A DNA stretch of 64,000 nt, taken from UHGV virus genome UHGV-0092003; one strand, 5' to 3'. This DNA comes from a virus. Below, piece after piece: positions 803 to 61,169 of this stretch. Position 1 is the first letter of the stretch. Each line of letters opens with the position of its first letter. Made by a program: the position numbers and the translations under genes. The notes below the pieces were generated by a model. That model saw only the letters and a list, made by a program, of their open reading frames with translations. It was not told the origin of the DNA and ran no database searches.

Positions 803-823
803 ATAAGTAAGAAATTACTTATT
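803..823. promoter_or_regulatory. palindrome ATAAGTAA-GAAA-TTACTTAT (family A operator-like motif)
   Basis: Perfect 8-bp inverted repeat with a 4-bp spacer. Same motif recurs at ≥15 intergenic sites. Confidence 0.5.
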
Positions 824-828
824 AATAA

Positions 829-858
829 GGGTGGGCTTGCGCCCGCCCTTTTTTTTGA
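829..858 (+). terminator. rho-independent terminator
   Basis: Stem GGGTGGGC/GCCCGCCC with loop TTGC, followed by T8. Confidence 0.7.
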
Positions 859-867
859 GGGAAAGAA

Positions 868-1311
868 ATGCCTGAACAAAAAATGAAAATCACGGATGAA
901 CAGTTTTCGGATTTCACAGGGACTATGTTCAACACCCCGTTTACCAAATCCATCTCTGATGTACCAATGACGGTCTATCGACAGAATCGGCTGACAGCCT
1001 GCTTCCAGTCAAAACCTTACCAAGATCCGCCGCCCGTGATCCACGTCCAGTCCGTTACTGTGGCGCCAGCGAAAGCGTCGGTCACTGTTGATGGCACCGT
1101 GCAGCTTGGAGGCTCAATTAAACCGGATAACGCAACCGACCGCTCATTCCATTGGGTGTCGGATAACACAGATATCGCGACCGTTGATTCTTCTGGTCTG
1201 GTGAAAGGCGTTGCCGCTGGCACTGTGAAGATCCGTCTTGTTGCTACCGATGGCTCCGTAACAGGTGAAGCCGTTGTTACTGTCGAAGCTCCGGCAGAAG
1301 CGGTTGTTTAA
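868..1311 (+). CDS. Bacterial Ig-like (Big_2) domain virion protein, possible capsid decoration
   Basis: β-rich ~80-aa Big_2-like segment (VTVAPAKASVTVDGTVQL…GTVKIRLVATDG). RNA hairpin at 1316–1337 downstream. Confidence 0.55.
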   Translation: MPEQKMKITDEQFSDFTGTMFNTPFTKSISDVPMTVYRQNRLTACFQSKPYQDPPPVIHVQSVTVAPAKASVTVDGTVQLGGSIKPDNATDRSFHWVSDNTDIATVDSSGLVKGVAAGTVKIRLVATDGSVTGEAVVTVEAPAEAVV

Positions 1312-1350
1312 TTTAAGGGCGCCAGAGGGCGCCCAATTTAGGGTACGAAA

Positions 1351-1776
1351 ATGAAAAGTGCAAAAGTCAAATTACTGGAATCAACCTTCAAAGGATATAC
1401 CGGTCTCCTGTGCGGTGTTCAGTTTGAAAACGGCGTGTCTGTGAAGGAGTTGCCATTTGTAGATCAGCAGCGTATTTGCGCTTCTATGCGTGCTGAGACT
1501 GTTGACGGTCGCAATGTTTCGGCGGCAGGCGCGTACAGCGAACGTTATGCAGTTACAGCGGACAACGTGAAAGAACATGTCGCTGAGCCGGTCGCTAAGA
1601 TGGAGCGTGGAACTACGGAACCTGGAGTGCAGATTTACACGCGTGAAGAGCTTGAAGCCATTGCTGATAGCGAAGGTATCGCGGGTCTTCGTCTTATCGG
1701 CGGCAATATCGGCGTTAAGGCCAAAGGCATTGTTGAGATGATCGATGGAATTCTGAAAGCACAAGGCGGTGTGTAA
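1351..1776 (+). CDS. hypothetical structural / head–tail joining protein
   Basis: Position between capsid and tail genes; ORF with RBS. Confidence 0.35.
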   Translation: MKSAKVKLLESTFKGYTGLLCGVQFENGVSVKELPFVDQQRICASMRAETVDGRNVSAAGAYSERYAVTADNVKEHVAEPVAKMERGTTEPGVQIYTREELEAIADSEGIAGLRLIGGNIGVKAKGIVEMIDGILKAQGGV

Positions 1777-2609
1777 TGGAGCAGCTTGGCGTTTATAAAG
1801 ACGGGGATGATGTCACGCTTCGCTTTTCTCTCGATGTGATGAGCGCAGTTTCAGCCACTTATTCTGTGAAGGACGCCAGCGGCAAAATCATCACATCCGG
1901 CGTGAATGTCCCGGTGACTGATGGGCAGATGTTTGTTGTAGTCACCATTCCGGGTTCAGTGAATGCACTGGAAGAACGTGAGCGCGATTTGAGACGCGTA
2001 ACGCTGTCTGTTGATGCTGGTGGTGTGTTCATCAACAAAGAACAGCAGTACATCGTTTTACGGAGTTTTGAGCTGTCCGTACCGGGGCAGTCGTTTATTT
2101 CGATTGCTGACGCGCAGCTGCAGGCCATCGATATGCTTAATGGCGGTAGTTTGCTGTCAGGTAGCGAGGGTGATTTGCGGAGACAGTTGATTGAGGCGAC
2201 GAGACGCGTTAAATCGATGTCGTTTTCCGTTCGTCGGATCTTCGGCATTGATTGGGACGATTATGACCGGCCGCAGAACATGCTGGCGACGTCAACTTTG
2301 CCTTTCCGCTGGGCGGGGCAGTATACCTCCGACATTGTCGACTGGAGCAAGCTCTCCGACGAGGACTTTATGGAGTTCCCTGAGAGTTTCCGTAGTGCTC
2401 TGGCACTGGCCGTCGTTAATGAGGCTAGTGAAATAGCTGGTGGGAATGATATCCAGCGAGCACGTGAAGATGGCATTGTTTCAGAGTCAATTGGGGAGAC
2501 AACCATTGCATACCGCCAGGGAAAAAGTGCTGTCTCTACAGTTTCTAGAACGACGTGGCGAATTTTGCTGAAGTACATGGACAATCGCGTCATCGTTCGC
2601 AGACAGTAA
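1776..2609 (+). CDS. hypothetical structural protein (277 aa)
   Basis: ATG overlaps the previous stop (TAATGG), suggesting translational coupling. Confidence 0.35.
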   Translation: MEQLGVYKDGDDVTLRFSLDVMSAVSATYSVKDASGKIITSGVNVPVTDGQMFVVVTIPGSVNALEERERDLRRVTLSVDAGGVFINKEQQYIVLRSFELSVPGQSFISIADAQLQAIDMLNGGSLLSGSEGDLRRQLIEATRRVKSMSFSVRRIFGIDWDDYDRPQNMLATSTLPFRWAGQYTSDIVDWSKLSDEDFMEFPESFRSALALAVVNEASEIAGGNDIQRAREDGIVSESIGETTIAYRQGKSAVSTVSRTTWRILLKYMDNRVIVRRQ

Positions 2610-2619
2610 GGCGGGTTAA

Positions 2620-2964
2620 ATGGATATTTCCTGGCAGGTTGAAGGTAGTCTGTATAAAAAAGTCGGCATGGATCTGTACGGCGAGGCTAAATATGAGTTC
2701 GCCGCGCCGGTAAAGATGGGTGTCGTGTCGTTCATTGACAGTATGGATAAGACGTCTGTTCGCGCGGATAGCGCGGCCAGTCGTGGTAAGGCGGAAATAG
2801 CGCTGTTCGATGCTGTTTTTATCATCCCGATCACTGCGACTGTCGATAAGGAAGATGTGTTGGTAGTCGACGGTAAAAAGCTGCGTATCGTTAGCATACA
2901 CCGACGATGGGGGCTTCGCGGTCGTCCGGGCCACTATGAGGTTGGGGCGAATATATGGGTTTGA
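2620..2964 (+). CDS. head–tail connector/adaptor-like protein
   Basis: Size and position only. Confidence 0.3.
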   Translation: MDISWQVEGSLYKKVGMDLYGEAKYEFAAPVKMGVVSFIDSMDKTSVRADSAASRGKAEIALFDAVFIIPITATVDKEDVLVVDGKKLRIVSIHRRWGLRGRPGHYEVGANIWV

Positions 2965-4434: not shown

Positions 4435-4468
4435 TTGTAATATTGAAGTTAGTAAGTATATACTTACT
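4435..4468 (+). promoter_or_regulatory. candidate σ70 promoter (TTGTAA-18-TATACT) overlapping palindrome AGTAAGTATATACTTACT
   Basis: Palindrome at 4451–4468. The −10 lies inside the palindrome, upstream of the tube gene. Confidence 0.4.
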
Positions 4469-8900: not shown

Positions 8901-10534
8901 AGCAGCAAAGTATTGATGCGATGGTAGCCAAGGCCAATCAGCAGGTCGTTTCCAGCGCGAACGAGTTGGCCGGTCAGTTGGGTCTTACGTCTAAGGCAAG
9001 TGCAAGCTTCGACGAGTCGGTTAAAAAAACACTGAGTCAAATCGATAACGCGTTGAAGGATCAGGACATCAACGGCAAAGCCTTGCCGCCAAACTCTCGA
9101 TTCACCGACGACCAGAAGCGCCAGATGATTCGTGATCGCGATTTCATCAAAGCCAATGCTGCGGACTACTCTCAGCGTCTTGACCGCGATTCTGCCGAAC
9201 AGACAGTGTCGAAATTCACTACGACGACCAGCGGGATTATGTCGTCGGTTGATGGTGCTAATCGACAGGCTGCGATGGCTAAGTGGATGGAAGACTATCA
9301 GCGCGACATCAAGACACTTCAGAGTTATATCGCAACGACTCAGTCGGATGTAATGAAGGATGTGTACCAGCGCAGTCTGAAAGCGATGAGAGAAGGTGGC
9401 AGTCGTGCCTTTATCGAGCAGTTTGGGACTGAAACGCAGAAGATGGCGCTGGAGTACGAAGACGTCGCCGGTCAAATTGAGACCGTGTGGAGTAATGCGT
9501 TCTCCAGTATGACGGACACGATTACCGACTTCATTATGGACGGTAAGGCGAGTTTCAGTGATTTTGCAAGATCGATCGTCAAAGACATAGCCAGCATCAT
9601 TGTTAAATCGCAGATCACTGCACCGCTCATGAATATGATGGGCATGGGAACCAACGGTGCGGGTAATACCGGCAACATTGCTGGGGCTATGCTGAATCAG
9701 GGCGTAAGTCTCGTCAGCTCCGGCGGCGCCGGTGTTAATGTCAATAACGGTGACAAATCCATTGGTCAGTCCGCGAAGGAGACCAGCGCGGGTATTAGCC
9801 AAATGAGTACGGCCACCGAGAATGCTAACAGCGGATTGTCTGGGATGGTTAGTAGCGCCTGGAATTCTACAAAGTCATTCCTTGGTCTTGGTGCGGCTAC
9901 GGGTAATCAGACTAAGGCAATCGGCGCCAACATTCTGACGATGAATAATCTATCTTCAGTGGCAGCAGGTTTGACGGCTGTTTTCGCTTCGATGGGGGCT
10001 AGTTCGACTTCATCGAAGGGGCGTTGGCTGAACTTTGGTATGTCCATGGTATCCGCGGCAACATCGGTCTGGGCTGGTAGCCTCGCGAGTGGAGGTGGTG
10101 GGTCTGGTGGGTCTGGAACAACGCAGGCCAATGGTCAGAACATTCCACCCATTCCTAAATTTGAGAAGGGCGGGATCATGGGGCCAAATGGTGTAATTCC
10201 ACTGAAGACTTACTCCAAAGGCGGGATCGCTACTTCGCCGCAGCTGGCTCTATTTGGCGAAGGGAAAGACAATGAAGCCTATGTCCCTCTGCCTGATGGT
10301 CGTTCGATTCCAGTGACGATGACGGGGAATGTTGGCGGCGGCGGAACGATTGCTCCGGTTGCCATCAACATCAGCGTTAATTCGGACGGTTCCAGTTCAA
10401 CGTCTGGTTCGGACACGGACAGCAAAGGTTGGAACGATGCGGCACAACGCATCAAAAATATCGTTCTTGAAACGATTACTCAGGAAAAGCGCCCTGGTGG
10501 TTCTCTGAACAAAAACACCAACGGCAACAGGTAA
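5996..10534 (+). CDS. tail tape measure protein (1512 aa)
   Basis: Long α-helical protein with Gly-rich segments, placed between chaperones and distal tail genes. Confidence 0.9.
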   Translation: MSDIVDFKLTLNDKEFSTSIKNAGNLLETFGKTASNNSKKMSSLERSVVATGRSFSVLSVSLGKGADKMEDFAAGTELASQSLRAIRENIAAINRSLSVFSTRVDQTSGKVGALTSVLKKAQSELLDFADFADHAGKSAKSFSNHASDMGNTTSSLNRRLSNTSKVLDRWKGTTDKAADGLKNVRDQMDAVIDRQKSLSGRILGGGRVGGSGGGSGGGRGNSGGGHGRSENGLFEGLRGNIFLLGEIGDAARTVKEMLFGWQQPLIEAMSKMQNTRILLQGLEKDAKNPQDAAEKDMNFIMGLSEKVHVSLDAVSDAFVKLKSGGIDPTTGSLNALVNSVAQFGGDSEILKRAAIAIQQMSGKGVISMEELRQQLGEAVPTAMQSMADTMGVSMAKLVKDVSLGAVEAKSALDMLFLGMEIDSAGAADRLSHSFTGALAQMQTAFMRFSDNMAKGGYLDALSDGLKQLSTYLNTTEGQLFAYNFGQGMTAIVKTLTDMASWIGKNIELVKTIAQIVGLGMGFKLLKTIVTGSLGTALEMFSSLNKSLGLATKGVTSFLSVTGKIVQDIRNFGLFAAAVINITEAIRGAKTAWLAFTTVLQFNPIIVGITAVVGVVALLASTFESVSEKASDALEKIKAVPEAMGKNEQAALTARLNQLDLEEADYKRRKSIYMSSTPEQQKGLAKSDKFNIDNINAGLKDVQSQRQDIQNAMGGAVVAVASKEISRNLQSGLKKIDDQFTKDAASLSTSAKDYRDRSDAISNDKSLSKDEKNSQLEKLNADRQKGLIDATQKRLEGYQNLVKTLQDQKASVESQLKSESLTAEQKKTLDTKNIALSKQINDLNNNQVQMAQADLDRAKKSMSGDTPKLSTQTKTGDRIKLITDNAGKKVGDFVNPDTGEALRDLLGNVITGQNQMSVNQRYLSAVGDKKFDDLSRSEQNSIKKGLADAAKADKIAADKRLQSANIAASKQQSIDAMVAKANQQVVSSANELAGQLGLTSKASASFDESVKKTLSQIDNALKDQDINGKALPPNSRFTDDQKRQMIRDRDFIKANAADYSQRLDRDSAEQTVSKFTTTTSGIMSSVDGANRQAAMAKWMEDYQRDIKTLQSYIATTQSDVMKDVYQRSLKAMREGGSRAFIEQFGTETQKMALEYEDVAGQIETVWSNAFSSMTDTITDFIMDGKASFSDFARSIVKDIASIIVKSQITAPLMNMMGMGTNGAGNTGNIAGAMLNQGVSLVSSGGAGVNVNNGDKSIGQSAKETSAGISQMSTATENANSGLSGMVSSAWNSTKSFLGLGAATGNQTKAIGANILTMNNLSSVAAGLTAVFASMGASSTSSKGRWLNFGMSMVSAATSVWAGSLASGGGGSGGSGTTQANGQNIPPIPKFEKGGIMGPNGVIPLKTYSKGGIATSPQLALFGEGKDNEAYVPLPDGRSIPVTMTGNVGGGGTIAPVAINISVNSDGSSSTSGSDTDSKGWNDAAQRIKNIVLETITQEKRPGGSLNKNTNGNR

Positions 10535-10582
10535 AAACAAAGCCGCCTACAGGAAGTGGGCGGCATCTCAAGGAAGAGAAAA
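10532..10582 (+). promoter_or_regulatory. conserved hairpin+RBS element, copy 1 (GCCGCC…GGCGGC + ATCTCAAGGAAGAGA)
   Basis: Near-identical ~48-bp element also at 25965–26011, after the other giant gene. Confidence 0.5.
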
Positions 10583-10918
10583 ATGGCAAGACAAACCTTT
10601 AACTGGTTCCCGGACTTTGAGTCCGAAAAGACGGTAAAGCCAGAAGTGACCATTCTGAAATTTGGCGACGACTACGAGCAACGCCAGTCAGCCGGTCTTA
10701 ACCGCATTAAAGAAGAATGGGCGCTGACGTTTAAAAGACCTTACAGCATCGGTAATGCTATCGACGATTTTCTGACAGCTCGCGGCGCAGTTGAGTCATT
10801 TTACTGGACGACCCCGCGCAATAAGAAAATCATCTGTGTGTGTGATTCTCATACTGTTAAACGCTATCCGGGGTATTTGGAGATCAGTTGTACCTTTAGA
10901 CAAGTTTTTGAATCTTGA
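10583..10918 (+). CDS. minor tail protein M-like
   Basis: 111 aa from the ATG with RBS AAGGAAGAGA; the upstream GTG at 10556 is less likely. Lambda gene order. Confidence 0.55.
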   Translation: MARQTFNWFPDFESEKTVKPEVTILKFGDDYEQRQSAGLNRIKEEWALTFKRPYSIGNAIDDFLTARGAVESFYWTTPRNKKIICVCDSHTVKRYPGYLEISCTFRQVFES

Positions 10919-10937
10919 TAAGTAAGTATTTACTTAT
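10917..10937. promoter_or_regulatory. palindrome ATAAGTAA-GTAT-TTACTTAT (family A)
   Basis: Perfect inverted repeat between the M-like and L-like genes. Confidence 0.5.
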
Positions 10938-13076: not shown

Positions 13077-16000
13077 ATGGAAGTTCCAAATTTCAAAAAA
13101 AGCCGTCTCTCGCAATTAGTCGCGCACGGCCTGATTATCTCAGGACGCGGCGGCAGTAAGGGTGGCGGTAGCTCAAGGACGCCGGTGGAGGCTAATGACA
13201 CGGTAAACAGCCGCGCCATGGCTTCTGTATTGGATTTGCTGGGTGAGGGTGTTATCGGTGGTCTGATTGATGGGGCAAAATCCATCTTCCTGAACGACAC
13301 GCCGCTCCAGAATAGCGACAATTCCTACAACTTCAGCGGTGTAACCTGGTGGTTCCGCGACGGTTCTCAGGATCAAAGTGTCATCGATGGTTTTGACTTC
13401 ATTGAAACGCCGAAATCAGTAGGGCGTCAATTGAAGCAAACGAGCCAGGTTAACGTGTCTCTGGATTCTGCGGACAGCGATCGCGTTCGTGTGGTGATGA
13501 AGTTCCCTTCACTTCGCAGCATCGATAAAAAGAGCGGCGATACTAACGGTACGACGGTCCAGTTTAAATTCCAGATCGACGCAGGTAATGGCGGCGGCTT
13601 TGTTGACGTTGTTGCAGAGGGAGAATCCAACGCAACCATTTCTCTGACCGCGAAGAAGACAGGTGTTTATTACCGTAGTTATGTTCTGGACTTACCGAAG
13701 CCGGCAAAGGCATATACTCTGCGTGCCATTCGTCTGACTGAAGATCATACCGATAACAGCTATCTCTACGATGACACCTACATCGATTCGATCGGTGAGA
13801 TTGTCAATACCAGCCTGAACTATCCGAACTCTGCGCTCGTTGGCCTGAAAATCAACTCAGAGCAGTTCGGTTCTTCAATGCCGACTCGTTCATACCTGAT
13901 TAAAGGTTTGAAAATTCGTATCCCGTCAAACTATAACGCTGACACGAACTCCTACGACGGCAATTGGGACGGTACATTTAAGCTGGCATCATCCTCCAAC
14001 CCGGCGTGGATTCTCTTCGACTTGCTGACGAACACTCGTTACGGTCTGGGTCAGTTTGTTCAGGAGTCGATGATTAACATCGGCGAGCTGTATCAGATTG
14101 GTCGCTACTGTGACGCATACGTCGACGATGGCTTCGGCGGCAAAGAGAAACGTTTCTCTATCAATACCCAGATAACCAGTCGCCAAGATGCATATCGCGT
14201 CGTGCAGGACATTGCAGGGGCATTCCGTGGCATGGTTTATTGGGCTGGTGGCATGGTTCACATCACGCAGGATTCTCCAGCAGACCCTGTGATGCTGTTC
14301 TCCAACAGCAACGTGGTAAATGGCTCATTTGCATACAAAGGTTCGGCGCGTAAAGATCGCTATTCCGTTGCTCTTATCACCTACAACAATAAAGAAGACG
14401 GCTACAAGCAGAGCGTCGAGTATGTAGAAGATCAGGAAGCGATTAAACGCTACGGTATCCGCAAAACTGAGTCCGTCGCATTCGGCTGTACTTCGCGGGG
14501 CCAGGCGCATCGCGTTGGTCTCTGGACGCTCTACACCTCTCGCATGGAATCTGACGTCATCACCTTTGCAGTGGGTATGGACTCTGTATTCCTGATGCCT
14601 GGCGACATCGTGCTGATCGCAGATAAATTCCGCGCTGGCCGTCGCAACAGTGGTCGTATTACCGGCTACACCTCCAATAGCATCAAGCTGGACGCTCCGG
14701 TTGATCTGACTTCAGTTGGAAACCATATCACCTTCCTCAGCGCAGAAGGAAAGATGGTTGGGCGTGATATTTTGGAGAATGGGAAGAACATCACCACCGT
14801 CACGTTTAAAACCGCTCTCAGCTCCAATGAGACGCCGGTAAGCGATGCAGTGTGGGTCATTGCTCAACCAGACTTAACTCCGCTACAAGCACGCGTTGTG
14901 AGCGTTGCTGAGGGTGACGATGGTACGTCGTTCAATATCACGGCTATTCAGAACAACCCGACCAAATACGAAGCTATTGATAGCGGCGCACAGCTGATCC
15001 CGCAAAATACCACCGTTCTTGACCCAACGTTCTCAAAGCCGTCAGGTCTGGCGATTACCGAAGGCACTTATCTGTCCTCTCCGGGTAACTTGTCCGTTTC
15101 TCTGACCGCTACATGGCAGGGCAAGTCGGCTCAGTATTACATCAGCTGGCGCCGCTCCGATGCCGGGAATGTTTCAAACTGGAAATCTGAGCGCGTAACT
15201 GAAGAACAGTTCGAACTTCGTGGAGTAGCGGAGAACGGCCAGTACGACTTCCAGGTGTACGCTGTTTCTGTTGGTGGCCGCAAAACTGATCCTATCAGCA
15301 TCACCTACAAAGTTCTGGGAACCATGACGGCGCCTGATGCCCCGACCGGTCTAACTGCGGTAGGCGATTATCGCTCAATTGTTCTGAATTGGGTAAACCC
15401 GGCTTCCGTTGACTTGGATCACATCGAGGTTCTGGCATCCAAGACCAACGATAAGTCTAAAGCGCAGCTGATTGCCAAGGTATCTGGTACAACCTTCAGT
15501 CACAACGGTCTTGAAGACTCTGTCACCTGGTATTATTGGGTACGTGCAGCCAACAAACGTGGAATGCTCAGTGCGTTAAACTCCCCACTGGCAACGACCG
15601 CAACGACGCGCGACGTTCTTTCGTTCCTGCAAAATAAAATCACCGAATCCGAGTTGGGTCAGGCTCTGATTACTGATATTAACAGTAAGGCTGTGGCGAC
15701 AGAGGTGGACGCGGCCATAGACGACGCCAAGAGTCAGGCAACGAATCAGGTGAATAGTGCTCGAGCTGAGGCGGCTAATGCGGTGAGCCAAGCGCAGAAG
15801 ACTCTTGATTCGTTGATTAAGCAGGAGGTGACGGACCGCAAAAGTGCCGTTGCTGATGAAGCGAGACAGCGTGCCAAAGCTATTGCAGATGAAGCTGATG
15901 CACGCACAAAGGCGATTTCTGACGAGGCCACTGCTCGCGCAGATGCAATCTCGAAAGAGGTCACTGCTCGCGACAAGGCTATTGCTGATGAAGCCACTGC

Positions 16001-35868: not shown

Positions 35869-35878
35869 CCGCAAAAAA

Positions 35879-36927: not shown

Positions 36928-36935
36928 AAGGATCT

Positions 36936-39980: not shown

Positions 39981-39985
39981 GATAA

Positions 39986-41890: not shown

Positions 41891-41910
41891 ATAAGTAATG
41901 ATTTACTTAT
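41891..41910. promoter_or_regulatory. palindrome ATAAGTAA-TGAT-TTACTTAT (family A)
   Basis: Perfect; upstream of phoH. Confidence 0.5.
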
Positions 41911-43985: not shown

Positions 43986-44018
43986 GAGGCTCCTGAAGGA
44001 GCCTCGTTGCTAATTTTT
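43986..44018 (+). terminator. rho-independent terminator
   Basis: Stem GAGGCTCC/GGAGCCTC with loop TGAA, then a T-run. Confidence 0.6.
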
Positions 44019-44212
44019 CTTAAAATTTCTTCAACTATCAATAATCATAGTTGACACGAAAAATAAACAAAAAACAACGAATTAGACAACATAATCAAGT
44101 TAAAAAAACCTAGAAACAAAATACCAAAATGCATTATTGTATCTATGTGTAATTGAATAATCTCAGATATAAGCGCTTGTTATTATAGAATCACTCAAGG
44201 AGAGGCAAGGAA

Positions 44213-44743: not shown

Positions 44744-44793
44744 ATGCCAGTTCTTATTTAGCAGCTAACATTACATCACTTTATTAATTAAAA

Positions 44794-44816
44794 TGGGGCG
44801 CGAGCCCCTTTTTAAT
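44794..44816 (+). terminator. rho-independent terminator
   Basis: GGGGC-GCGA-GCCCC followed by T5. Confidence 0.65.
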
Positions 44817-44890
44817 TTCATGGACTTCATAAATCCCAATCTATATGATCTATGTCTATCGCAGATAGAAAATATGAGATTTAAATAAAT

Positions 44891-45199
44891 ATGGATAAAA
44901 ATGAAATGCGCAATTTCCTTCTACAGCAAGGTTTTTTGAGAGTGCGGCAGCTGGCCGACGATAGCTGGATAGGTGTGCTTAGGCTGGCATTCACGACATC
45001 AGTTTGCATGGATATTGACGAAGTAACCCCCTTCCGTTATCGCTGGTGTTTCGCCGATCCAGCTGAAGCAAATCACTTTTTCGAGACGGCCGTAGACTAT
45101 GATGAAGTGCCAACTAAGCGCGATTCGTTGAAAGGACATCGGTATGTTGGCGAGCCACTGCTGCGCGAAAAGGATGAGTTCGGGTATGATAAATGGTAA
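44891..45199 (+). CDS. hypothetical 102-aa protein
   Basis: ORF; convergent hairpin downstream. Confidence 0.35.
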   Translation: MDKNEMRNFLLQQGFLRVRQLADDSWIGVLRLAFTTSVCMDIDEVTPFRYRWCFADPAEANHFFETAVDYDEVPTKRDSLKGHRYVGEPLLREKDEFGYDKW

Positions 45200-45215
45200 A
45201 GCCCCGTTAGGGGCT

Positions 45216-45635
45216 TTACTTGACTTTCGGCTCGCATACCTGCCAATGACTTGATACTAATGATATACCAAGATCTAACTCTTTTGGGTCAAATGGATTT
45301 TCATTTCTGAGGCCAGCATTTACCAAAACTAATTCAGTATCACTTTCGGCGTTATACTTAATTCTGCCACCTTTTACAACGGAGTATCTTGCGGCAGCAT
45401 GTGGGTTATTGAATTTGTGACCACTAGACAGTTTAGCTGTCACTGGCCCGACAACACTCAGCTTTCTCATTTCTTTAAGAATGGCGAGGCTTGCATCTAC
45501 ATCTTGCTTAGTGGCGTCAACTGTCTTGCCTTCTAGACGGGCTTCGCGAGCACGGAGCATACGAGCTGCACGTCTATCCAACGCAACCTGCATTGAAGCA
45601 GTGCGTTTAGTAGCATTTTGGCGTTCGTAAGACAT
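45216..45635 (-). CDS. hypothetical protein B of SOS-box-associated two-gene operon
   Basis: Overlaps the upstream ORF by 29 nt. Confidence 0.4.
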   Translation of the reverse strand: MSYERQNATKRTASMQVALDRRAARMLRAREARLEGKTVDATKQDVDASLAILKEMRKLSVVGPVTAKLSSGHKFNNPHAAARYSVVKGGRIKYNAESDTELVLVNAGLRNENPFDPKELDLGISLVSSHWQVCEPKVK

Positions 45636-46071
45636 AACCCCTCCTGTCCGGATCCAGTCCTGTTTCTATCGTGAAGCCGCGTCCTAAATGTCTTGCGACA
45701 AGTCGTTTGTACACAGCTTCTAATTTGTCATTGTCAGGCAAAAAAACGTACATTCCTGCCTTGTATTCATTATAGTGGTCACGAATCGCTCTTTCAACCG
45801 TCCTCATGACGCTGATAGCGCTGACCGTACCTAATTCAGGGCGATCAAAATAGGTTCCATTTGCCAGGTTTTCAGCCAGGTCAAATGAGATCTCCCAGCA
45901 CCCATTAGGGCTAAAAATATACCCTTCAGGGAAAATCACTGAAGAATCAACAAGATTAAATTCTGAAATGCTCTGAAGGTTCAGCTCATACTCATGACCA
46001 TTTGAGAAAAAAATAGCTGTATGGACACGAGAGTAAGCCGAGAACCTCATGGTTGTAAACTGTGTAACCAT
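45607..46071 (-). CDS. hypothetical protein A of SOS-box-associated two-gene operon
   Basis: Divergent from the integrase across the LexA-box-like site. Confidence 0.4.
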   Translation of the reverse strand: MVTQFTTMRFSAYSRVHTAIFFSNGHEYELNLQSISEFNLVDSSVIFPEGYIFSPNGCWEISFDLAENLANGTYFDRPELGTVSAISVMRTVERAIRDHYNEYKAGMYVFLPDNDKLEAVYKRLVARHLGRGFTIETGLDPDRRGYVLRTPKCY

Positions 46072-46196
46072 CTAAACAATTTCCTTTTTTACATAGTTTA
46101 AACCGGAACCGCGGTATTTTTCGACCGAAATTAGCAAAAAAAATGAGGCGCCAATGACCCTGGCAGGATGTCTGTTTTTTGAAAAATCGGCATTTT

Positions 46197-46227
46197 GTGA
46201 TTCCATACTTCTTAGGTATGGAATCAC
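46197..46227. repeat. perfect 12-bp inverted repeat GTGATTCCATAC-N6-GTATGGAATCAC
   Basis: Read directly from the sequence. Confidence 0.6.
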
Positions 46228-46278
46228 TCCAAAAAAACGGTTACTCTGGGTTGACCTTACAGATAAAATACCGTTAAA

Positions 46279-55996: not shown

Positions 55997-56435
55997 GGAC
56001 AAGGCGATCATCAAAGAAGTGATGGATGACATCAGGCTTGATACGCATGATTTGGACGCGGTCTGGCGTCGTCAGCCGGAGCTTGTCGCCATTTATGGTT
56101 TTAAACAGGTTGAGGCTGAAAGCGCTGCGAATGCTGCGAAGCGGGATTTGGAATCTATCGAGGCGCGACTCTATTCGACGACGCGTGCCGGTCTGAGTTT
56201 CGACGGTGTGAAGATCAGCGAATCGACCATTGAAGCCAAAATAAAGTCGGCTCCGGCGTATCTTTCGGCTCGCCAAAAGTACGATGACGCGAAGTACCTC
56301 GCTGAGTTTTACAAGCAGGTTGTTAACGCGCTCGGACACCGTCGAGACATGATCGTTCAGGCGTCTAAAAAGGCAATTTCCGAATACGAAAGAACAGGTG
56401 TTGAACGATTCAACGCCCCTAAAAATGTATCTTGA
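55995..56435 (+). CDS. hypothetical protein (146 aa), possible recombination mediator
   Basis: Position adjacent to the SSB, FEN and RecA-family genes only. Confidence 0.25.
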   Translation: MDKAIIKEVMDDIRLDTHDLDAVWRRQPELVAIYGFKQVEAESAANAAKRDLESIEARLYSTTRAGLSFDGVKISESTIEAKIKSAPAYLSARQKYDDAKYLAEFYKQVVNALGHRRDMIVQASKKAISEYERTGVERFNAPKNVS

Positions 56436-56455
56436 TAATAAGTGATCGCTTATCT
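56436..56455. promoter_or_regulatory. family-A related palindrome GATAATAAG-TGATCG-CTTATCTATC
   Basis: ATAAG/CTTAT arms; upstream of the SSB gene. Confidence 0.35.
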
Positions 56456-56501
56456 ATCATAACCAAGTGCAATAAAAGCCATTAACAATAAAGGAAAACA
56501 C

Positions 56502-57479
56502 ATGTCCGCTTTAATGAACCTTCTGAAGAAAAGCCAAGAAGTTGCGAAAAACGCACGCGGCAATCGCGGAAACGATCTGCAAAAGATGCAACCAGGCGAA
56601 AACTACGTTCGTATCATCCTGAACAAAGACGACCCTGACAATATTCCATTCTCTCACAAGTACGGCATTCACTATGCCAAAACTAAAGGCGAAGATGGGA
56701 AGGACGTATACAGCGCTCACCTGTGCTTCCAGCATACCCATGATAAGCCGTGCGAAATGTGCGAAATGGTTATGGAAGCTAAAGCGAAGTACAAAGGCAA
56801 CAAAGCCATGGAAAAAGTCATCGACGATATGCGCGCCTCTCCGCGTATGGCTGTTGTCGGCATGTGGTCTCAGAAAGAAGACTTCAGCGACACCGATAAG
56901 ACTTCTCTCATCGATATGCCTATGTCCGTGTTTGACGACCTGATGGACGCCATTATGCAGGATATGAACGATGAGATCGGCGAACCGCTGAGCCGCGAAA
57001 AAGGTTACGCGTATCAAATTACTCGTACCGGCTCTGGTCTGGATACTGACTACAAAATCAAGCCGATGCGTAAAAACAAAACAGCAGTTCCGGCTAAGTT
57101 CTGGGATAACCAACCGTCTCTGGAACAGTTTGTAAACCAGACCGATCCGACAAAACTGATGGCGACCTCCAAAATGATTGCTCGCGCGACCGGTATCGCA
57201 CTGCCAGCGTCAATGGGTTCAAGCGCCGGTGCTCTGCCAACCCCAACCGGCAAAGCAGCTGCATCTCTTCCGGGCATGTCCATTACCGGCGTAGATGATT
57301 CAACTGTTGAAGCCTCTTTGCTGGATAAAGAAGTTGAATACGCAAAAGAAGCCGTATTCGAGCCAGAAGAGAAAGAAGTGAAAGAGGTAAAAGAAGCGCC
57401 AGCAAGCGAGCCAGTAGCTGAGCCGGAAAACGAAGATCTGGATGACATTTACGCGCAACTTAACGCGCTTTCTATGTAA
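56502..57479 (+). CDS. ssDNA-binding protein (gp32-like, Zn-binding)
   Basis: HLCFQHTHDKPCEMCEM Cys/His cluster. Acidic C-terminal tail EDLDDIYAQL. Confidence 0.5.
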   Translation: MSALMNLLKKSQEVAKNARGNRGNDLQKMQPGENYVRIILNKDDPDNIPFSHKYGIHYAKTKGEDGKDVYSAHLCFQHTHDKPCEMCEMVMEAKAKYKGNKAMEKVIDDMRASPRMAVVGMWSQKEDFSDTDKTSLIDMPMSVFDDLMDAIMQDMNDEIGEPLSREKGYAYQITRTGSGLDTDYKIKPMRKNKTAVPAKFWDNQPSLEQFVNQTDPTKLMATSKMIARATGIALPASMGSSAGALPTPTGKAAASLPGMSITGVDDSTVEASLLDKEVEYAKEAVFEPEEKEVKEVKEAPASEPVAEPENEDLDDIYAQLNALSM

Positions 57480-57524
57480 GCCAGCCGTTGATTTTAAAGG
57501 CGTCTTCGGACGCCTTATTTATTC

Positions 57525-58502
57525 GTGGAGAACAATGCCGTGAACATTTTAATAATCGACGGAAATAGCCTCGGTTACTACCACCAGCAGCAACCCAAAA
57601 AACTTCATAGCGGCGATATGGAGACTCAGGCAGTGTTTGGTTTTATCACCAATATGCGCCGCTATGCTTCGCTTCTGAAGGCTCGCCCTATCGTCCTGTG
57701 GGATGGCTTCAGTGACAAGCGTCGCGCGTTTTACCCGGACTACAAAGCCAACCGTGACGACAACGCAGAAATGAAGCAGATGAAAGAAGGTTTTGCCACA
57801 CAAAAGCCTTTCATCAAAAAAGCAATCACCGCGCTTGGCGTCGACCAGATCACCGCAATCGACGGCGAAGCTGACGATTTGGCCGGCATTCTGAAGAAGC
57901 GCTATGTTGCGTCGAAAGACGTCGAACATATCTATCTGTTAACCGCGGACTCCGACTGGATTCAGCTGGTTGACGAAAAGGTAACGTGGGTCAGTCTGCG
58001 CGAGGACGCTAAGAATAAGCGCATCAATATCGAGGCGTTTTCCGAGTTAACCGGCTACCCAACACCACGCGGCTATCTGGAAGGCAAAGCGCTGCAGGGT
58101 GATAAGTCGGACAACATTCAGCAAGTCGGCGGTATTGGCGATAAAGGCGCGATGGATCTGATTAACGAGTATGGCTCCATTGTTACGCTGGTTAAGGGGA
58201 TTTGCGATGGCTCTATTGTCATGGACAAAGGTCGCAACAAAACGGCAGTGAATAACCTGGCGAAGAACGCTTTCAATGAGAAAACCGGCTGTCGGATGCT
58301 GGAGGCGTTTATGCGGAATATTAAGTTGATGGATCTCATCGACACCAAATTCGCCCCGGAGAAGCTGGAAATTATTCGCGGTGAGCAAAGTCTGGAAGCA
58401 TTTAAGCAAATCTGTATGCAGTTAAATTTCCAGTCAATCCTCAGCGATCTGGATGTTTTTGTCGTGCCGTTCGTTAAGCGCTGCGGGTTGGTGGCTGAAT
58501 GA
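57525..58502 (+). CDS. 5'–3' flap endonuclease / exonuclease (FEN, T5 D15-like)
   Basis: N-terminal ILIIDGNSL and YKANRD motifs. Confidence 0.7.
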   Translation: MENNAVNILIIDGNSLGYYHQQQPKKLHSGDMETQAVFGFITNMRRYASLLKARPIVLWDGFSDKRRAFYPDYKANRDDNAEMKQMKEGFATQKPFIKKAITALGVDQITAIDGEADDLAGILKKRYVASKDVEHIYLLTADSDWIQLVDEKVTWVSLREDAKNKRINIEAFSELTGYPTPRGYLEGKALQGDKSDNIQQVGGIGDKGAMDLINEYGSIVTLVKGICDGSIVMDKGRNKTAVNNLAKNAFNEKTGCRMLEAFMRNIKLMDLIDTKFAPEKLEIIRGEQSLEAFKQICMQLNFQSILSDLDVFVVPFVKRCGLVAE

Positions 58503-58759
58503 TTGCGTCAATTATTACTGGAAAATCCACTACGCCGACCGCGCTGGCGAAGGAGTTAGTCTTCACCTATGGCGAGTATGTTGTGTCTGATTTTAACGCG
58601 TGCATCATCGGTCACAAAATCGCTCTGACAGCGCGTGAAGTAGATATCGTGAAAGGCCATATTCTCACCATCATTGAGCGATCCGCAAAAATGATGAACT
58701 GCGACACCATCACATTTAACCGTGAACAAGCCGAAAAAGAAATCGGCTTAACTAAATAA
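58499..58759 (+). CDS. hypothetical 86-aa protein
   Basis: Coupled ORF. Confidence 0.3.
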   Translation: MIASIITGKSTTPTALAKELVFTYGEYVVSDFNACIIGHKIALTAREVDIVKGHILTIIERSAKMMNCDTITFNREQAEKEIGLTK

Positions 58760-58775
58760 AACCAAAGGAAAACAC

Positions 58776-59843
58776 ATGAAAAAGTCACCATTAGCAGTAG
58801 CCATGAAAAAGCGTATCGGCGGAAATGATGAGATCCAAAAAGTCGAGCAATGGCTGGATACCGGTTTCCCCCCGTTAAACGAAGCCGTTTCTGGTGATCT
58901 GGAAGGCGGGCTTCCTTGTGGGCGTATTGTGGAGATTTTTGGGCCTCCGTCTGCAGGCAAAACTTTCCTCGCAACCCGCGCGATGATTGCTGCGCAGAAA
59001 GTTGGTGGTATTGCGGTATTCCTCGATCATGAAAACAGTTTTGACGTTGGTCTGGCAGAAGTTATGGGACTTCAGTCTGATGAAGATGAAGGTAATTGGG
59101 TTTACAAGCAGCCAGACACCTTTGAGGATGCTATCGACTTGACCGGGCAAATCCTGTCTCTGGTTCGCAAGGAGAATCTGATCCCAGCTGAAGCGCCCAT
59201 CGTCATTGTTTATGACTCACTGGCCTCCATGGTTCCGCGCCAGAAGTTCGAAAAGTTCGAGAAGATGGCAGATGGCACGGCCAAAGAGAAAGACGAGCTG
59301 AATATGAACGACAATACGGCACTGGCTCGCGCGACTTCGGCAAATCTCCCAACGCTGGCTAAGTGGGCGCAGAAGTACAATGCCTGCCTCATTTTCCTGA
59401 ACCAAGTGCGTACAAAAATGGGCGTCATGTTCGGAGACCCTACCACTTCCCCAGGCGGCGACTCCCCAAAATTCTACGCTTCCGTCCGCATCAAGCTGGG
59501 TGGCGGTCAGTTGAAAGAAGGTGGCGATCGCGTTGGTCAGCTGGTTAAAGCAGAGTGCGTAAAAAACAAGGTGGCGCCACCGTTCCAGAAATGCGAGTGG
59601 AACTTCTACTTCGACCCTGCGCGTGGTCTGGACGTCGTAGAATCGCTTGTAGAGTACATGCTTGAAAAGGGCTACATTCCGAAGACGTCCACAGGCCGCA
59701 TCGAGATTGGCGACAAGAAGTACACCAAGTCGCAGATCGTCGATATGTACCGCGAGAAGGAATTAAGCGAAATCGTGAAGGCGATTAAGTCGATTCAGGC
59801 GAAGATGAAGTCGAAAGATGAACCTGAAGTCGCTGAAGCCTGA
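58776..59843 (+). CDS. RecA-family recombinase
   Basis: GGLPCGRIVEIFGPPSAGKTFLA Walker A in a RecA-like context. Confidence 0.7.
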   Translation: MKKSPLAVAMKKRIGGNDEIQKVEQWLDTGFPPLNEAVSGDLEGGLPCGRIVEIFGPPSAGKTFLATRAMIAAQKVGGIAVFLDHENSFDVGLAEVMGLQSDEDEGNWVYKQPDTFEDAIDLTGQILSLVRKENLIPAEAPIVIVYDSLASMVPRQKFEKFEKMADGTAKEKDELNMNDNTALARATSANLPTLAKWAQKYNACLIFLNQVRTKMGVMFGDPTTSPGGDSPKFYASVRIKLGGGQLKEGGDRVGQLVKAECVKNKVAPPFQKCEWNFYFDPARGLDVVESLVEYMLEKGYIPKTSTGRIEIGDKKYTKSQIVDMYREKELSEIVKAIKSIQAKMKSKDEPEVAEA

Positions 59844-59998
59844 TCCAGTCATCTAGCCCAAACTTGAATTAGCAATCTCCCGGCGCAGAGCTTAACGTCA
59901 TGCACCAGTCAGCTCTGTGCCGAAACGGGACTCCTGATATGATAAACTAACCAGGCGCGTCTCGCTTCGTTGCGCAATCAGAATCACCTACTTTTCAC

Positions 59999-60022
59999 CC
60001 GCTCATACGAGCGGTTTTTTTT
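59999..60022 (+). terminator. rho-independent terminator
   Basis: CCGCTC-ATAC-GAGCGG followed by T8. Confidence 0.75.
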
Positions 60023-60092
60023 ATGCAAAGATTCGGTCTTGACGAACACAGCGAAGAAGACATCATTTGATACCTTCATGCTATGCCATATA

Positions 60093-60121
60093 TTGACTCT
60101 GCCAATGACTTCATCATAGAT
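60093..60121 (+). promoter_or_regulatory. candidate σ70 promoter TTGACT-17-ATAGAT
   Basis: Placed between the two terminators with no ORF downstream. Confidence 0.35.
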
Positions 60122-60127
60122 TGTCAA

Positions 60128-60339
60128 GGTGGTGAATCCCCCTGAGCGGTGGGGCGACCAGTCAGTTACAGTGATCTGTAAATGCAGCGCGAGCCATGTC
60201 GGCTGGGACATGCTCACCGGGAGGCACCCGGCACCACAAGCGTTACTAAGCAAATTCGTAGCAGAATTAACCCCTTGTTAACCCTGTTATGTTTAACAAA
60301 TCCAATTTCAACCCGCCCCCCCTTGTGCGGGTTTTTTTT
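60128..60339 (+). ncRNA. candidate ~210-nt small RNA (promoter to terminator)
   Basis: Bounded by the candidate promoter and the strong terminator at 60312–60339. Contains several internal inverted repeats. The only plus-strand ORF here is antisense to the minus-strand gene. Confidence 0.3.
60312..60339 (+). terminator. rho-independent terminator
   Basis: CCCGC-CCCCCTTGT-GCGGG followed by T9. Confidence 0.7.
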
Positions 60340-60352
60340 TAACTCAAACTGC

Positions 60353-61078
60353 TTAGCGGTCTTCCTTGCTCCCCTTTCTGACGCCAACTTTAGAGAAATG
60401 GCCATACATTGCGCCAAGGCTGGCAAATGGAAATTTTTCGCCCATTTGTGCCCGAATATCCTTACCTGTATATTCGCCAGATGCCCACATATCAGTACAT
60501 GCAGCTTTAAGTTGAACACGGGGATCTACCGGTTTCGGTTTAAGGGGCTTCTTACGAGGTTTTCTCGGATGCTCAGGTATGATGCCATTTTTCTTAAACC
60601 AGCGTCTAAGTGCGCCGACGTTTTTCATACCTAACTCGGGAGAGAGTTCATCAAAGATTTGTCGGGTTGTGTGCTGGCCGGCTTTCCTTAACTCCACGGC
60701 TCTTTCTCTCAAAATTGCTCGCGGATTATTCGGAGCGTCGGGCGACTCGGAGTTTCTTATGTATCCATTTTGCCGGAACCAGAAAAGAAGAGATCCCTTG
60801 CGCTGTATACCCAGACGGCCTTTAAACATTTCAAGTAATTCGGGAGCGCTATACAGACCTGAAATCCATAGCGCGGCAGCTTCATGCCTGTTTTCATTGA
60901 TTTTTTCTTTGGACTTGGAGCCTCGGATCTTGCCTTGTGATGAAAGCCAATGAACGAGTTCAGCTGAAGAACTCATGCCCATTCGTTTTCCTAACACCAT
61001 AAGGATCATGTCAGCATCAAAGGCCCCACTCTCCCATAGCTCAATGGCTTTTAACCCAGCCAACTCTCTGTCTGTCAT
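60353..61078 (-). CDS. DNA-binding protein with three tandem ~45-aa HTH-like repeats
   Basis: Repeats LGKRMGMSSSAELVHWLSSQGKIR, FKGRLGIQRKGSLLFWFRQNGYIR and LSPELGMKNVGALRRWFKKNGIIP. Only minus-strand gene in this block. Confidence 0.5.
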   Translation of the reverse strand: MTDRELAGLKAIELWESGAFDADMILMVLGKRMGMSSSAELVHWLSSQGKIRGSKSKEKINENRHEAAALWISGLYSAPELLEMFKGRLGIQRKGSLLFWFRQNGYIRNSESPDAPNNPRAILRERAVELRKAGQHTTRQIFDELSPELGMKNVGALRRWFKKNGIIPEHPRKPRKKPLKPKPVDPRVQLKAACTDMWASGEYTGKDIRAQMGEKFPFASLGAMYGHFSKVGVRKGSKEDR

Positions 61079-61148
61079 TCGTCTTCCAGGCCGCTAAAAA
61101 GAACATGTTATGCAGGATAAAAGCAGGGTTCAATATGTTTCGCTTGAT

Positions 61149-61169
61149 GATAAGTAAGCACTTATTTAT
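61149..61169. promoter_or_regulatory. palindrome GATAAGTAAGCACTTATTTAT (family A)
   Basis: 16-mer GTAAGCACTTATTTAT shared with the site at 48191. Confidence 0.5.

Follow-up and report, generated by a model that had tools for sequence, protein, structure and literature searches.

A conserved intergenic palindrome of SSU5-like phage-plasmids as a candidate operator set for a lysogeny repressor

Introduction

The stretch of DNA analysed here (64,000 nucleotides of the virus genome record UHGV-0092003, referred to below as the window) is a portion of a Klebsiella pneumoniae SSU5-like phage-plasmid, as is indicated by both nucleotide and protein comparison. Between its genes one palindromic sequence occurs again and again, and the question raised by this DNA is which protein reads these repeats and what it does when bound to them. 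The set of palindromes is real, highly non-random and conserved across a large and clinically relevant family of elements, and we consider it probable that these palindromes form the operator set of the lysogeny repressor of the element.

Positions 44000–64000 of the window show 99.5% identity to the plasmid pMB7868_2 (NZ_CP103584.1, 111.6 kb) and 93–96% identity to many other K. pneumoniae plasmids of 108–112 kb, and its DnaE-like polymerase shows 67% protein identity to the counterparts encoded by Salmonella phage SSU5 and E. coli phage Cyrano. The gene order is that of Cyrano, viz. head, tail and lysis genes, followed by a toxin-antitoxin pair and parA, the replication genes, a tRNA, a recombinase gene, a gene for an XRE-family protein, the cobT/cobS-like genes and dnaE. 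The genes are almost all encoded by the plus strand; coding sequence makes up 90.5% of the window, the remaining 9.5% being intergenic. In the searchable literature, outside which most subscription journals lie, neither the motif nor a repressor regulon of SSU5-like elements was found to be described.

Enrichment and placement of the palindrome

An earlier reading of the window, made from its letters without database searches (the sequence-only reading), had reported a palindromic motif at 15 or more intergenic sites. When the window was searched for ATAAGTAA-N4-TTACTTAT (pattern ATAAGTAANNNNTTACTTAT) with at most 3 mismatches, 15 matches were found, whereas dinucleotide shuffles searched with the same pattern and tolerance gave a mean of 0.17 matches and a maximum of 2. 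All 15 sites are intergenic, although only the small non-coding fraction given above was available to them, and the report of the motif is thus borne out in number as well as in placement. Further, every match to ATAAGT-N4-ACTTAT or ATAAGT-N8-ACTTAT with at most 2 mismatches is intergenic, and the matches at other spacings are few, mostly coding and chance-like. A sequence that is far above chance and confined to non-coding DNA has the distribution of a dispersed operator.

A position weight matrix (PWM) for the motif was iterated on two genomes, viz. Cyrano and a complete Klebsiella plasmid, which was pieced together from the window, the tail end of locus L001 and locus L004 in reverse complement (positions in this assembly are referred to below as plasmid positions). 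The PWM identifies exactly 15 sites in the window, with scores from 17.3 to 31.4 bits and none between 10 and 17; per genome it identifies 27 sites in the complete Klebsiella plasmid and about 30 in Cyrano, and roughly 2 in shuffled sequence. Its consensus is a palindrome of 20 bp, ATAAGTAAGT/ACTTACTTAT (the stroke marks the centre), with the information mostly at positions 2–8 and 13–19. The sites at 803, 10918 and 41891 are perfect 8-4-8 palindromes, and perfect copies of ATAAGT-N4-ACTTAT are present at 35880, 39986, 50258 and 61150. The coordinates and sequences of all sites are given in Table 1.

The sites are unevenly distributed over the different kinds of gaps between genes. They are present in 12 of the 25 co-directional gaps of at least 40 bp and in 3 of the 5 divergent gaps, and absent from all 30 co-directional gaps shorter than 40 bp as well as from all 8 gaps that are convergent or lie between minus-strand genes. 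The sequence-only reading had placed the sites 10–40 nt upstream of a start codon, and this is roughly correct, but the actual distance from the end of a site to the next start ranges from −3 to 63 nt and for two sites exceeds 200 nt. Stop codons are overlapped at sites 10918 and 27553, and a start codon (at 55831) by the site at 55814–55833. No site is found upstream of the minus-strand or maintenance genes of the window, the toxin-antitoxin pair, parA and the recombinase gene among them. A real copy is present at 15 of the 16 places originally listed; the sixteenth, a supposed half-site at 54136–54145, consists merely of TAAGTAAAAT, has no partner, falls below the threshold and is not counted.

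The recognised unit

When the best pair of 8-bp half-sites was determined for 52 sites from the two genomes, 39 preferred a total length of 20 bp and 7 preferred 16 bp. Each half-site is a tandem (A)TAAG-TAAG(T), in which a shift of 4 bp still matches. Several sites ahead of apparently orthologous genes differ in length class between the genomes: the site at 35876 belongs to the 16-bp class and its Cyrano equivalent at 34730 to the 20-bp class, and the opposite switch is seen between site 803 (20 bp) and Cyrano 5443 (16 bp). The two spacing classes proposed earlier are therefore present as a sequence pattern, but the class with half-sites 4 bp apart is a minority (7 of 52) and reflects largely the internal TAAG-TAAG periodicity. 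A model with two true spacing classes, in which outer and inner TAAGT registers compensate for each other, was rejected (Fisher test on 100 half-sites, p = 0.64). The recognised unit is better described as a single 20-bp palindrome, and the 16-bp class would then represent a tolerated central deletion of 4 bp and not a second binding geometry. In the 20-bp frame the centres of the half-sites are about 11 bp apart, a distance that suits a helix-turn-helix dimer.

Relationship of the sites to promoters

The best sigma-70-like promoter near the symmetric sites has a median score of 8.6 bits in the sense of the downstream gene as compared to 5.6 bits in antisense (Wilcoxon p = 7e-6), and a promoter of at least 9 bits overlaps or abuts the site in 24 of 49 cases in sense versus 3 of 49 in antisense. 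About half of the sites are located inside, or directly after, predicted sigma-70-like promoters facing the downstream genes. Relative to the palindrome, the −35 hexamers start recurrently at −5, −2 and +12 and at about −16, −25 and −40, and these registers put the palindrome in the spacer, over the −35 or the −10, or at +1 to +25.

Several geometries of this kind recur in the two genomes. In one of them the palindrome fills the 17-bp spacer and the −35 TTGATA extends over its first three bases (10918, plasmid 72083 and 77094, Cyrano 67883). In a second, the −35 is located three bases further upstream and the −10 is made up by the last TAT of the palindrome (56438, 61150, plasmid 110809, Cyrano 3527 and 57446). 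The right arm, TTTACT, itself constitutes the −35 at 39982 and plasmid 84864, and more weakly at 27553 and plasmid 86017. The overlap with a −10 box that the sequence-only reading had noted at 4451 is confirmed, as TATACT of the predicted promoter TTGTAA-18-TATACT is centred on the palindrome of site 4448, and the same is seen at Cyrano 9022. Lastly, the −10 can lie just upstream of the palindrome, and at 32450 and 48196 the promoter ends 8–13 nt ahead of the site. An independent promoter scan backs four of these placements, viz. promoters enclosing sites 56438 and 61150 and preceding sites 32450 and 48196. Since the register of the palindrome relative to the promoter varies in this manner (from about −37 to +25), the sites fit operators of a repressor better than an activator element, which would have a fixed position.

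The hexamer TATAAG, of which the plus strand has 18 copies and the minus strand none, was considered as a fixed promoter element, as it is often found 3' of the palindrome. It was ruled out: its distance from the palindrome varies and its bias is the ordinary asymmetry of the coding strand (Markov expectation 12.1 and 3.0).

Conservation in related elements

In Cyrano, sites are present at matching junctions, viz. after the capsid gene and before the tail, holin, helicase-operon, cobS, ssb and nrdA genes, among others. Exact counting of inverted repeats missed the motif in relatives, where the sites are imperfect, and PWM scanning recovered it. It is present in pUCLAOXA232-4, from a Klebsiella lineage whose XRE protein is only 41.5% identical, and SSU5 keeps 13 sites in 42 kb. 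Among species-representative genomes the motif is found in Kluyvera, Buttiauxella, Yersinia pestis (pMT1-type), Xenorhabdus, Morganella, Oxalobacter and Halomonas, and weakly in Photobacterium, and ten further genera have related elements that keep the consensus. When viral contigs were scanned for the exact pattern, many single, chance-like matches and several multi-match contigs of 90–120 kb were obtained. The conservation of the motif is exemplified by the cobT–cobS spacer, where in an alignment of 13 lineages the palindrome forms a conserved island that is followed by a conserved TATAAG-type element.

In the phage-plasmids of Acinetobacter baumannii the orthologous junctions carry TCAGTCAGT/ACTGACTGA, which has the same architecture with one base changed in each tetranucleotide unit (TAAG to TCAG). 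A mixed form, GGTAAGTCAGC/GCTGACTA, is present at the cobS junction of a Magnetospirillum locus (L016), and the core of the motif is recognisable in a Castellaniella locus. The view that the element is specific to one phage has to be given up, as it characterises the SSU5 supercommunity in general, together with the relatives of this group. The original proposal, viz. a palindrome of operator type that is read by a dimeric regulator, fits these data: the sites are intergenic, are conserved at orthologous junctions of distant relatives and overlap sigma-70-like promoters of the gene-sense strand at variable registers, and their two halves vary independently, as is usual for half-sites of proteins.

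The XRE-family protein as candidate binder

The protein that had been named as the possible binder of the palindromes, a product of the XRE gene at 47339–47644, is still the best candidate, on evidence that is circumstantial, and we regard the chances that it binds these sites as evenly balanced. Its match to the Pfam family HTH_3 (PF01381) is borderline (23.3 bits against a cut-off of 23) and places it in this family, and it matches PHROG phrog_8, 'transcriptional regulator', with E = 2e-8; a search of solved structures gave no match at E < 0.2. It is encoded by one of the few minus-strand genes of the window, and in a scan of 17 small or unannotated open reading frames (ORFs) of the window no other gene for a DNA-binding protein could be recognised. 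The 101 amino acids of this protein comprise a helix-turn-helix domain only and no S24 peptidase domain of the kind responsible for self-cleavage of LexA and CI; induction must therefore use a route other than self-cleavage. The protein has homologues in 871 plasmid records. Of the 12 genome loci with sufficient flanking sequence, 11 have a homologue at the same place, about 3 kb upstream of cobS and in the opposite orientation. The homologue in Cyrano, CYRAN_45 (49% identity), is annotated as 'putative repressor' and is expressed 10-fold above the local background in the lysogen; ciprofloxacin induces this phage 39-fold (PMC9928086). Another highly expressed gene of Cyrano, CYRAN_43, was considered as an alternative binder and set aside, as it is not conserved in the window.

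A weaker copy of the palindrome (47677–47700) accompanies the predicted XRE promoter, of which it covers about +5 to +24. In E. coli and in Klebsiella pUCLAOXA232-4 the XRE promoter is TTTACA-17-TAATAT, and one base later the core palindrome GGTAAG(C/T)ACTTACC follows; in Kluyvera, Buttiauxella and Yersinia it is AGTAAGCACTTACC that follows the −10 of the conserved TTTACA-17-TAATAT promoter. The copies at this promoter are of the TAAGT type in Xenorhabdus and Morganella, and in Acinetobacter the TCAGT variant TCAGTCAGTTCTGA is found. Most other lineages examined likewise have their own variant of the motif at the XRE promoter. A lineage-own variant at the promoter of a repressor gene is the usual signature of autoregulation, and on this pattern of sequences the site at 47677–47700 is a candidate autoregulatory operator. 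Further, 11 of the 14 genes that are expressed in the Cyrano lysogen have no upstream site, and the maintenance genes of the window lack sites as well, as is expected of genes that stay on in the prophage.

The deletion in SSU5 and a possible SOS input

The phage SSU5 has been described as virulent (PMC5427195). In its genome (NC_018843.1) just 165 bp are present from tRNA-Asn to the cobT-like gene (locus L023, positions 15978–16141), and in this interval the relatives hold cargo genes, the recombinase gene and the XRE gene. No match to CYRAN_45 was found by tblastn in either SSU5 record, and the SSU5 junction is contiguous in none of 822 related plasmid records. The closest to it are Enterobacter plasmids, whose sequences are 98–99% identical to the two flanks and match them as two separate places, and at least NZ_CP031722.1 among these carries the XRE gene. 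SSU5 looks like a recent deletion derivative in which the repressor was lost and the operators were kept, an observation that is supportive but not decisive.

The genes for the XRE protein and the tyrosine recombinase are convergent and their 3' ends overlap by 11 bp. A LexA-box-like sequence overlaps the −10 of the recombinase promoter (Table 1), and Cyrano and pUCLAOXA232-4 have an equivalent box ahead of their recombinase genes. Kluyvera and Y. pestis also have such a box, in the corresponding place some 1.1 kb away from the XRE gene. It is speculative, but this box may give an SOS input to the switch via convergent or antisense transcription.

Upstream of the recombinase promoter the window also contains an inverted repeat, GATTCCATAC-N9-GTATGGAATC (46198–46228), which is found in pUCLAOXA232-4 as well and whose right arm was seen in the Cyrano stretch that was read. 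It may be a target of the recombinase, viz. a dimer-resolution site.

Favoured explanation and its difficulties

From the enrichment, placement, conservation and promoter context of the motif we infer repression by a protein encoded by the phage-plasmid, most probably the XRE protein. In the plasmid-prophage state a dimer of the repressor would be seated on the 20-bp palindrome, with half-site centres roughly one helical turn apart, and about half of the approximately 27 sites per genome would be at sigma-70-type promoters of lytic operons, viz. those for structural, lysis, replication, recombination and nucleotide-metabolism genes. The bound repressor would block binding or escape of RNA polymerase, and at sites without a promoter it may stop elongation. 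The weaker copy at the repressor's own promoter would lead to negative autoregulation, and the plasmid-maintenance and cargo genes, which have no site, would remain on. Induction is probably linked to the SOS response, and here, more speculatively, transcription of the recombinase gene from the LexA-box promoter would run convergently into the repressor gene.

A number of observations weigh against this explanation. For about half of the sites no convincing sigma-70 promoter is seen, site 803 (like Cyrano 5443) is placed between the capsid gene and a terminator, where an operator of a promoter makes little sense, and the promoter scan calls fewer promoter-like sites than are called in shuffles (19 vs 26.5 and 14 vs 20.5). 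In 7 of 52 sites the half-sites are 4 bp closer, which a rigid dimer should refuse unless it is reading the 20-bp frame. The operator is kept across lineages whose XRE proteins are only 41–49% identical, although immunity determinants normally diversify, and the XRE protein of the window is without the C-terminal 25–30 residues that are found in most homologues. The link between this protein and the sites is correlative, and the same co-variation with the motif would be expected of every other DNA-binding protein that the family conserves. Lastly, the deletion in SSU5 has taken the recombinase and cargo genes together with the XRE gene.

A broader form of the repressor explanation is tentative and, with all its parts taken together, doubtful. 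It would hold that silencing by a single repressor is ancient in the SSU5 supercommunity and its gamma-, beta- and alpha-proteobacterial relatives and acts at early and late promoters alike, that its specificity has been retuned by a single base in each tetranucleotide unit (from TAAG-TAAG of the Enterobacterales to TCAG-TCAG of Acinetobacter, with a mixed TAAG-TCAG in Magnetospirillum), that induction occurs by SOS-dependent convergent transcription from the recombinase gene into the repressor gene and not by cleavage of the repressor, and that SSU5 is a recent repressor-deletion mutant.

Alternative explanations

ParB and KorB proteins are known to bind palindromes dispersed over a replicon, and the element encodes two ParB-family proteins, whose operon is itself preceded by a site (plasmid 103561, Cyrano 105107). 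The sites could thus serve a phage-plasmid protein other than the XRE protein, either a KorB-like ParB protein or a regulator of the lytic cycle that has the XRE gene as one of its targets. The site at the XRE promoter is equally consistent with the XRE gene being a target, and SSU5 retains sites in the absence of this gene. However, the ParB-like genes, unlike the XRE orthologue, are outside the set of genes expressed in the Cyrano lysogen, and the site upstream of them suggests that they are repressed in this state. Further, it will be incorrect to read the retained sites of SSU5 as an argument for another binder, since the deletion is recent, as judged from the near-identity of its flanks to XRE-bearing plasmids. 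We consider a different binder unlikely.

The position of many sites directly ahead of lytic genes, and of lytic genes only, could also be understood if the palindrome were a promoter-specificity or activator element, of the type of the P1 Lpa late promoters or of a class II activator. A strong promoter accompanies 24 sites, and at 11 of these the centre of the palindrome is at about −20 to −23; many sites are followed by −10 elements resembling TATAAG or TAAGAT. The centre is, however, not fixed, ranging from about −37 to +15, and no flanking column exceeds 0.41 bits beyond the palindrome and the three bases just upstream of it. Good −35 hexamers (TTGATA, TTGAAA) at 17-bp spacing make an activator unneeded, four sites overlap a start codon or end no more than 9 nt before one, and the lytic growth of SSU5 without the XRE protein indicates that this protein, at least, is not a required activator. 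A role of the palindrome in activation is on these grounds decidedly improbable.

It is very unlikely that the repeats act in RNA, as short AU-rich hairpins for processing, stability, attenuation or translational control. All sites are indeed in transcribed spacers between co-directional genes, those at 55814, 36909, 32450 and 48196 overlap a ribosome-binding site or start codon, and site 803 immediately precedes a terminator, but the arm sequence itself is conserved, beyond mere complementarity. Substitutions compatible with G-U pairing on the sense transcript show no excess in a test on 50 sites (30 vs 23 of the opposite kind, p = 0.41), which led us to reject this reading; 43 of 400 arm pairs are unable to pair and only 5 of 50 sites are perfect 8-bp palindromes. 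The stems would consist of 6–8 A-U-rich pairs with no T-run, and none of the sites was called an intrinsic terminator.

That a host transcription factor or nucleoid protein binds the sites and is exploited by the element would account for a motif that is conserved while the XRE proteins have diverged to 41–49% identity, but it is hardly credible, as the motif tracks the element and not the host (the same TAAGT form in elements of Enterobacterales and Oxalobacter and the core in the Castellaniella locus, and a coherent TCAGT variant at orthologous sites in Acinetobacter elements) and we know of no enterobacterial regulator with this consensus.

Comparison with known systems

By analogy, the palindromes considered as repressor operators would function most like the C1 system of phage P1, in which 22 operators are dispersed on a phage-plasmid (PMC8546580). 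Both are enterobacterial phage-plasmids with one master repressor (here a candidate) at many sites, about 27 in the present case, and in both systems lytic promoters have sites, as does the gene of the repressor itself. However, the P1 operator is an asymmetric 17-mer, ATTGCTCTAATAAATTT, in contrast to the 20-bp palindrome described here, and the candidate binder is a small XRE protein. The morphogenesis and lysis genes of P1 are transcribed from late promoters activated by Lpa, which is itself under C1 control (PMC8546580), whereas in the present element the sites also directly precede the head, tail and lysis genes. The palindromes should therefore not be filed as a member of the C1 system. 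Nor are they late promoters of the Lpa type, in which a palindrome fixed near −22 replaces the −35; here the −35 start varies from −40 to +12, the −35 hexamers are canonical and there is no fixed flanking element.

The stoperators of cluster A mycobacteriophages (L5 gp71 type) provide a second parallel, as many of them are located in short co-directional spacers, those of structural genes included, and several of the promoter-less sites described here could likewise act as roadblocks. The repressor sites of these phages are numerous and distributed genome-wide (PMC9283540), and the case of SSU5 is paralleled by D29, a lytic phage that arose from a temperate parent by deletion (PMC5712189). However, stoperators are asymmetric, are oriented with transcription and are bound by a two-domain monomer, whereas the present sites are palindromic with a symmetric 20-bp consensus, with predicted promoters overlapping half of them, a small XRE protein is the candidate binder and the hosts are Proteobacteria. 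Membership in this class was rejected on account of the symmetry, although the promoter-less sites may work alike.

Two other systems resemble the present one in outline. In the Streptomyces phage phiC31 the repressor c binds a conserved palindrome repeated at many intergenic loci, but its sequence, repressor family and host are unrelated to those considered here. In the IncP plasmid RK2 dispersed palindromic operators of KorA and KorB coordinate many operons; KorB belongs to the ParB family and can act at a distance, whereas here an XRE protein is the favoured binder and the sites are within promoters.

Coordinates and neighbouring features

Table 1. Palindromic sites of the window and associated features. 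Positions are those of the window unless another record is named; scores are PWM scores in bits; a Cyrano position is that of the orthologous site.
Feature	Positions	Strand	Sequence	Score or class	Location	Promoter relationship and Cyrano site
Site	803–822		ATAAGTAAGAAATTACTTAT	26.9; perfect 8-4-8	between major-capsid stop (794) and intrinsic terminator, upstream of gene 868	no promoter found on sense strand; Cyrano 5443
Site	4448–4468		GTTAGTAAGTATATACTTACT; perfect core AGTAAGTAT/ATACTTACT at 4451–4468	21.5	upstream of tail gene 4513	predicted promoter (see text); Cyrano 9022
Site	10918–10937		ATAAGTAAGTATTTACTTAT	31.4; top window site	overlaps stop of gene 10556–10918, upstream of gene 10969	occupies 17-bp spacer of TTGATA-17-TAATAT; Cyrano 15529
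Site	27553–27572		GTTAGTAAGCATTTACTTAC	22.8	overlaps stop of gene 26012–27553, upstream of gene 27636 (Cyrano counterpart annotated holin)	right arm is −35 of weak promoter TTTACT-17-TATGGT; Cyrano 26657
Site	32450–32469		GTAAGTAAGAACTTATTTAG	20.9	2 nt ahead of start of gene 32472 (helicase operon)	tool-called promoter TTCAAA-16-TATCAT ends at 32437, site at roughly +6 to +25; Cyrano 31296
Site	35876–35896		GATAAGTA-TT-TACTTATC, perfect at 35879–35896	25.1; 16-bp class	upstream of gene 35934	
Site	36909–36928		ATAAGTAAACATTTACTATA	19.9	7 nt ahead of start of gene 36936	
Site	39982–40001		ATAAATAAGTGTTTACTTAT	28.1	after gene 39738–39980, heading non-coding stretch with tmRNA-like element and tRNA-Phe	promoter TTTACT-17-TAAGAT, also at Cyrano 38252
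Site	41891–41910		ATAAGTAATGATTTACTTAT	25.7; perfect 8-4-8	after terminator 41855–41876, 50 nt upstream of phoH (41961)	
Site	47677–47700		GTAAGTAAGTAACTACATATTTAT	22.2; weaker copy	divergent region, 33–56 bp upstream of XRE start codon	see text
Site	48191–48217		CCATAAATAGTAAGCACTTATTTATGG	23.0	8 nt ahead of start of CobT-like gene (48225)	tool-called promoters end at 48182 and 48188; site starts about 10 bp past the −10 hexamers, around expected transcription start
Site	50258–50277		ATAAGTAAATACTTAT(TTCT)	24.5; 16-bp class	after T-run, upstream of CobS-like gene (50335)	
Site	55814–55833		ATAAGTAAGGATTTACTATG	17.3	overlaps ribosome-binding site and start codon of gene 55831	
Site	56438–56457		ATAAGTGATCGCTTATCTAT	18.7	upstream of gene 56502 (counterparts in Cyrano and SSU5 annotated single-strand DNA-binding protein)	within tool-called promoter TTGATA-17-TATCAT (56432–56460); Cyrano 52659
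Site	61150–61169		ATAAGTAAGCACTTATTTAT	29.0	upstream of gene 61201	within tool-called promoter TTGATG-17-TATTAT (61144–61172); Cyrano 57446
XRE-family helix-turn-helix protein, 101 amino acids, candidate repressor	47339–47644	minus		HTH_3, phrog_8		
Predicted XRE promoter	47711–47739	minus	TTTACA-17-TAGTCT			
Tyrosine recombinase gene	46315–47349	plus		PHROG phrog_1 integrase, E = 3.9e-42		
LexA-box-like sequence	46279–46298	plus	TACTGTACATACATACAGTT		overlaps −10 of recombinase promoter (TTGACC...TAAATA)	
LexA-like boxes elsewhere	L002 41046–41061; L006 18666–18681; L008 5396–5411; L010 5397–5412					
Acinetobacter variant spacers	plasmid NZ_CP140436.1 (locus L007), e.g. 2908–2968, 9301–9450, 16807–16945, 19004–19162					

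Directly downstream of site 39982 a transfer-messenger RNA (tmRNA)-like element is located at 39966–40360. Its matches in Rfam are below threshold (permuted tmRNA, 34.1 bits with a gathering score of 47, together with a tmRNA 3' end), and ARAGORN made no tmRNA call. It contains a tag-like frame, GCAAACGATGATGTAGTTCTGATGGCGGCTTAA, encoding ANDDVVLMAA followed by a stop; at the orthologous place pUCLAOXA232-4 encodes ANDNQYLAVA followed by a stop. The part at 40042–40197 shows 86–94% identity to stretches without annotation in large phages of Klebsiella, E. coli and Salmonella.

A second family of palindromes, GAAAACAAnTTGTTTTC, has 5 copies in the window (30524–30540, 33223–33239, 54148–54164, 54173–54189 and 62291–62307) as compared to 0.46 expected. 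These copies are typically located 10–30 nt ahead of a start codon (of parA, helicase and other genes), are also found in SSU5 and pUCLAOXA232-4, and may be sites of another regulator. Two of them occupy the spacer of about 70 bp between the two ORFs into which the DnaE-like polymerase of the window is divided (51763–54135 and 54146–55366, the second more likely starting from the ATG at 54207). Cyrano, SSU5 and pUCLAOXA232-4 have one undivided dnaE-like gene of about 3.5 kb; the split gene is absent from the PLSDB feature table of pMB7868_2, a table that omits pseudogenes.

Three other features of the window may be mentioned. A single ORF of 4296 amino acids (13077–25967) is located at the place of the separate host-specificity J (1575 amino acids) and tail-fibre (1341 amino acids) genes of Cyrano. 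An STnc100 small RNA at 60098–60294 (Rfam, 74.8 bits, exceeding the gathering score), with several promoter-like sites (60039–60122) just upstream of it, sits in a stretch of about 360 bp that is missing from the otherwise 99.5% identical pMB7868_2. Lastly, the hexamers CGTACG, GAGCTC, CTTAAG, GCATGC, AGTACT, CCCGGG and AGGCCT and the non-palindromic ACTGGG/CCCAGT do not occur on either strand, although 4–10 copies are expected; the missing hexamers look like the avoidance of restriction sites.

Significance

Phage-plasmids of the SSU5 type are frequent in Yersinia pestis (pMT1) and in clinical Klebsiella, E. coli, Salmonella and Enterobacter, and their quiescence and induction are essentially undescribed. 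A consensus sequence, a candidate repressor and a candidate SOS input make this question experimentally simple, and the motif provides a sequence signature by which lytic promoters in these elements may be spotted. The switch from TAAG to TCAG offers a natural system for studying how the specificity of a repressor changes. In addition, the interpretation of these palindromes as operators of a repressor offers an explanation for the virulent behaviour of SSU5.

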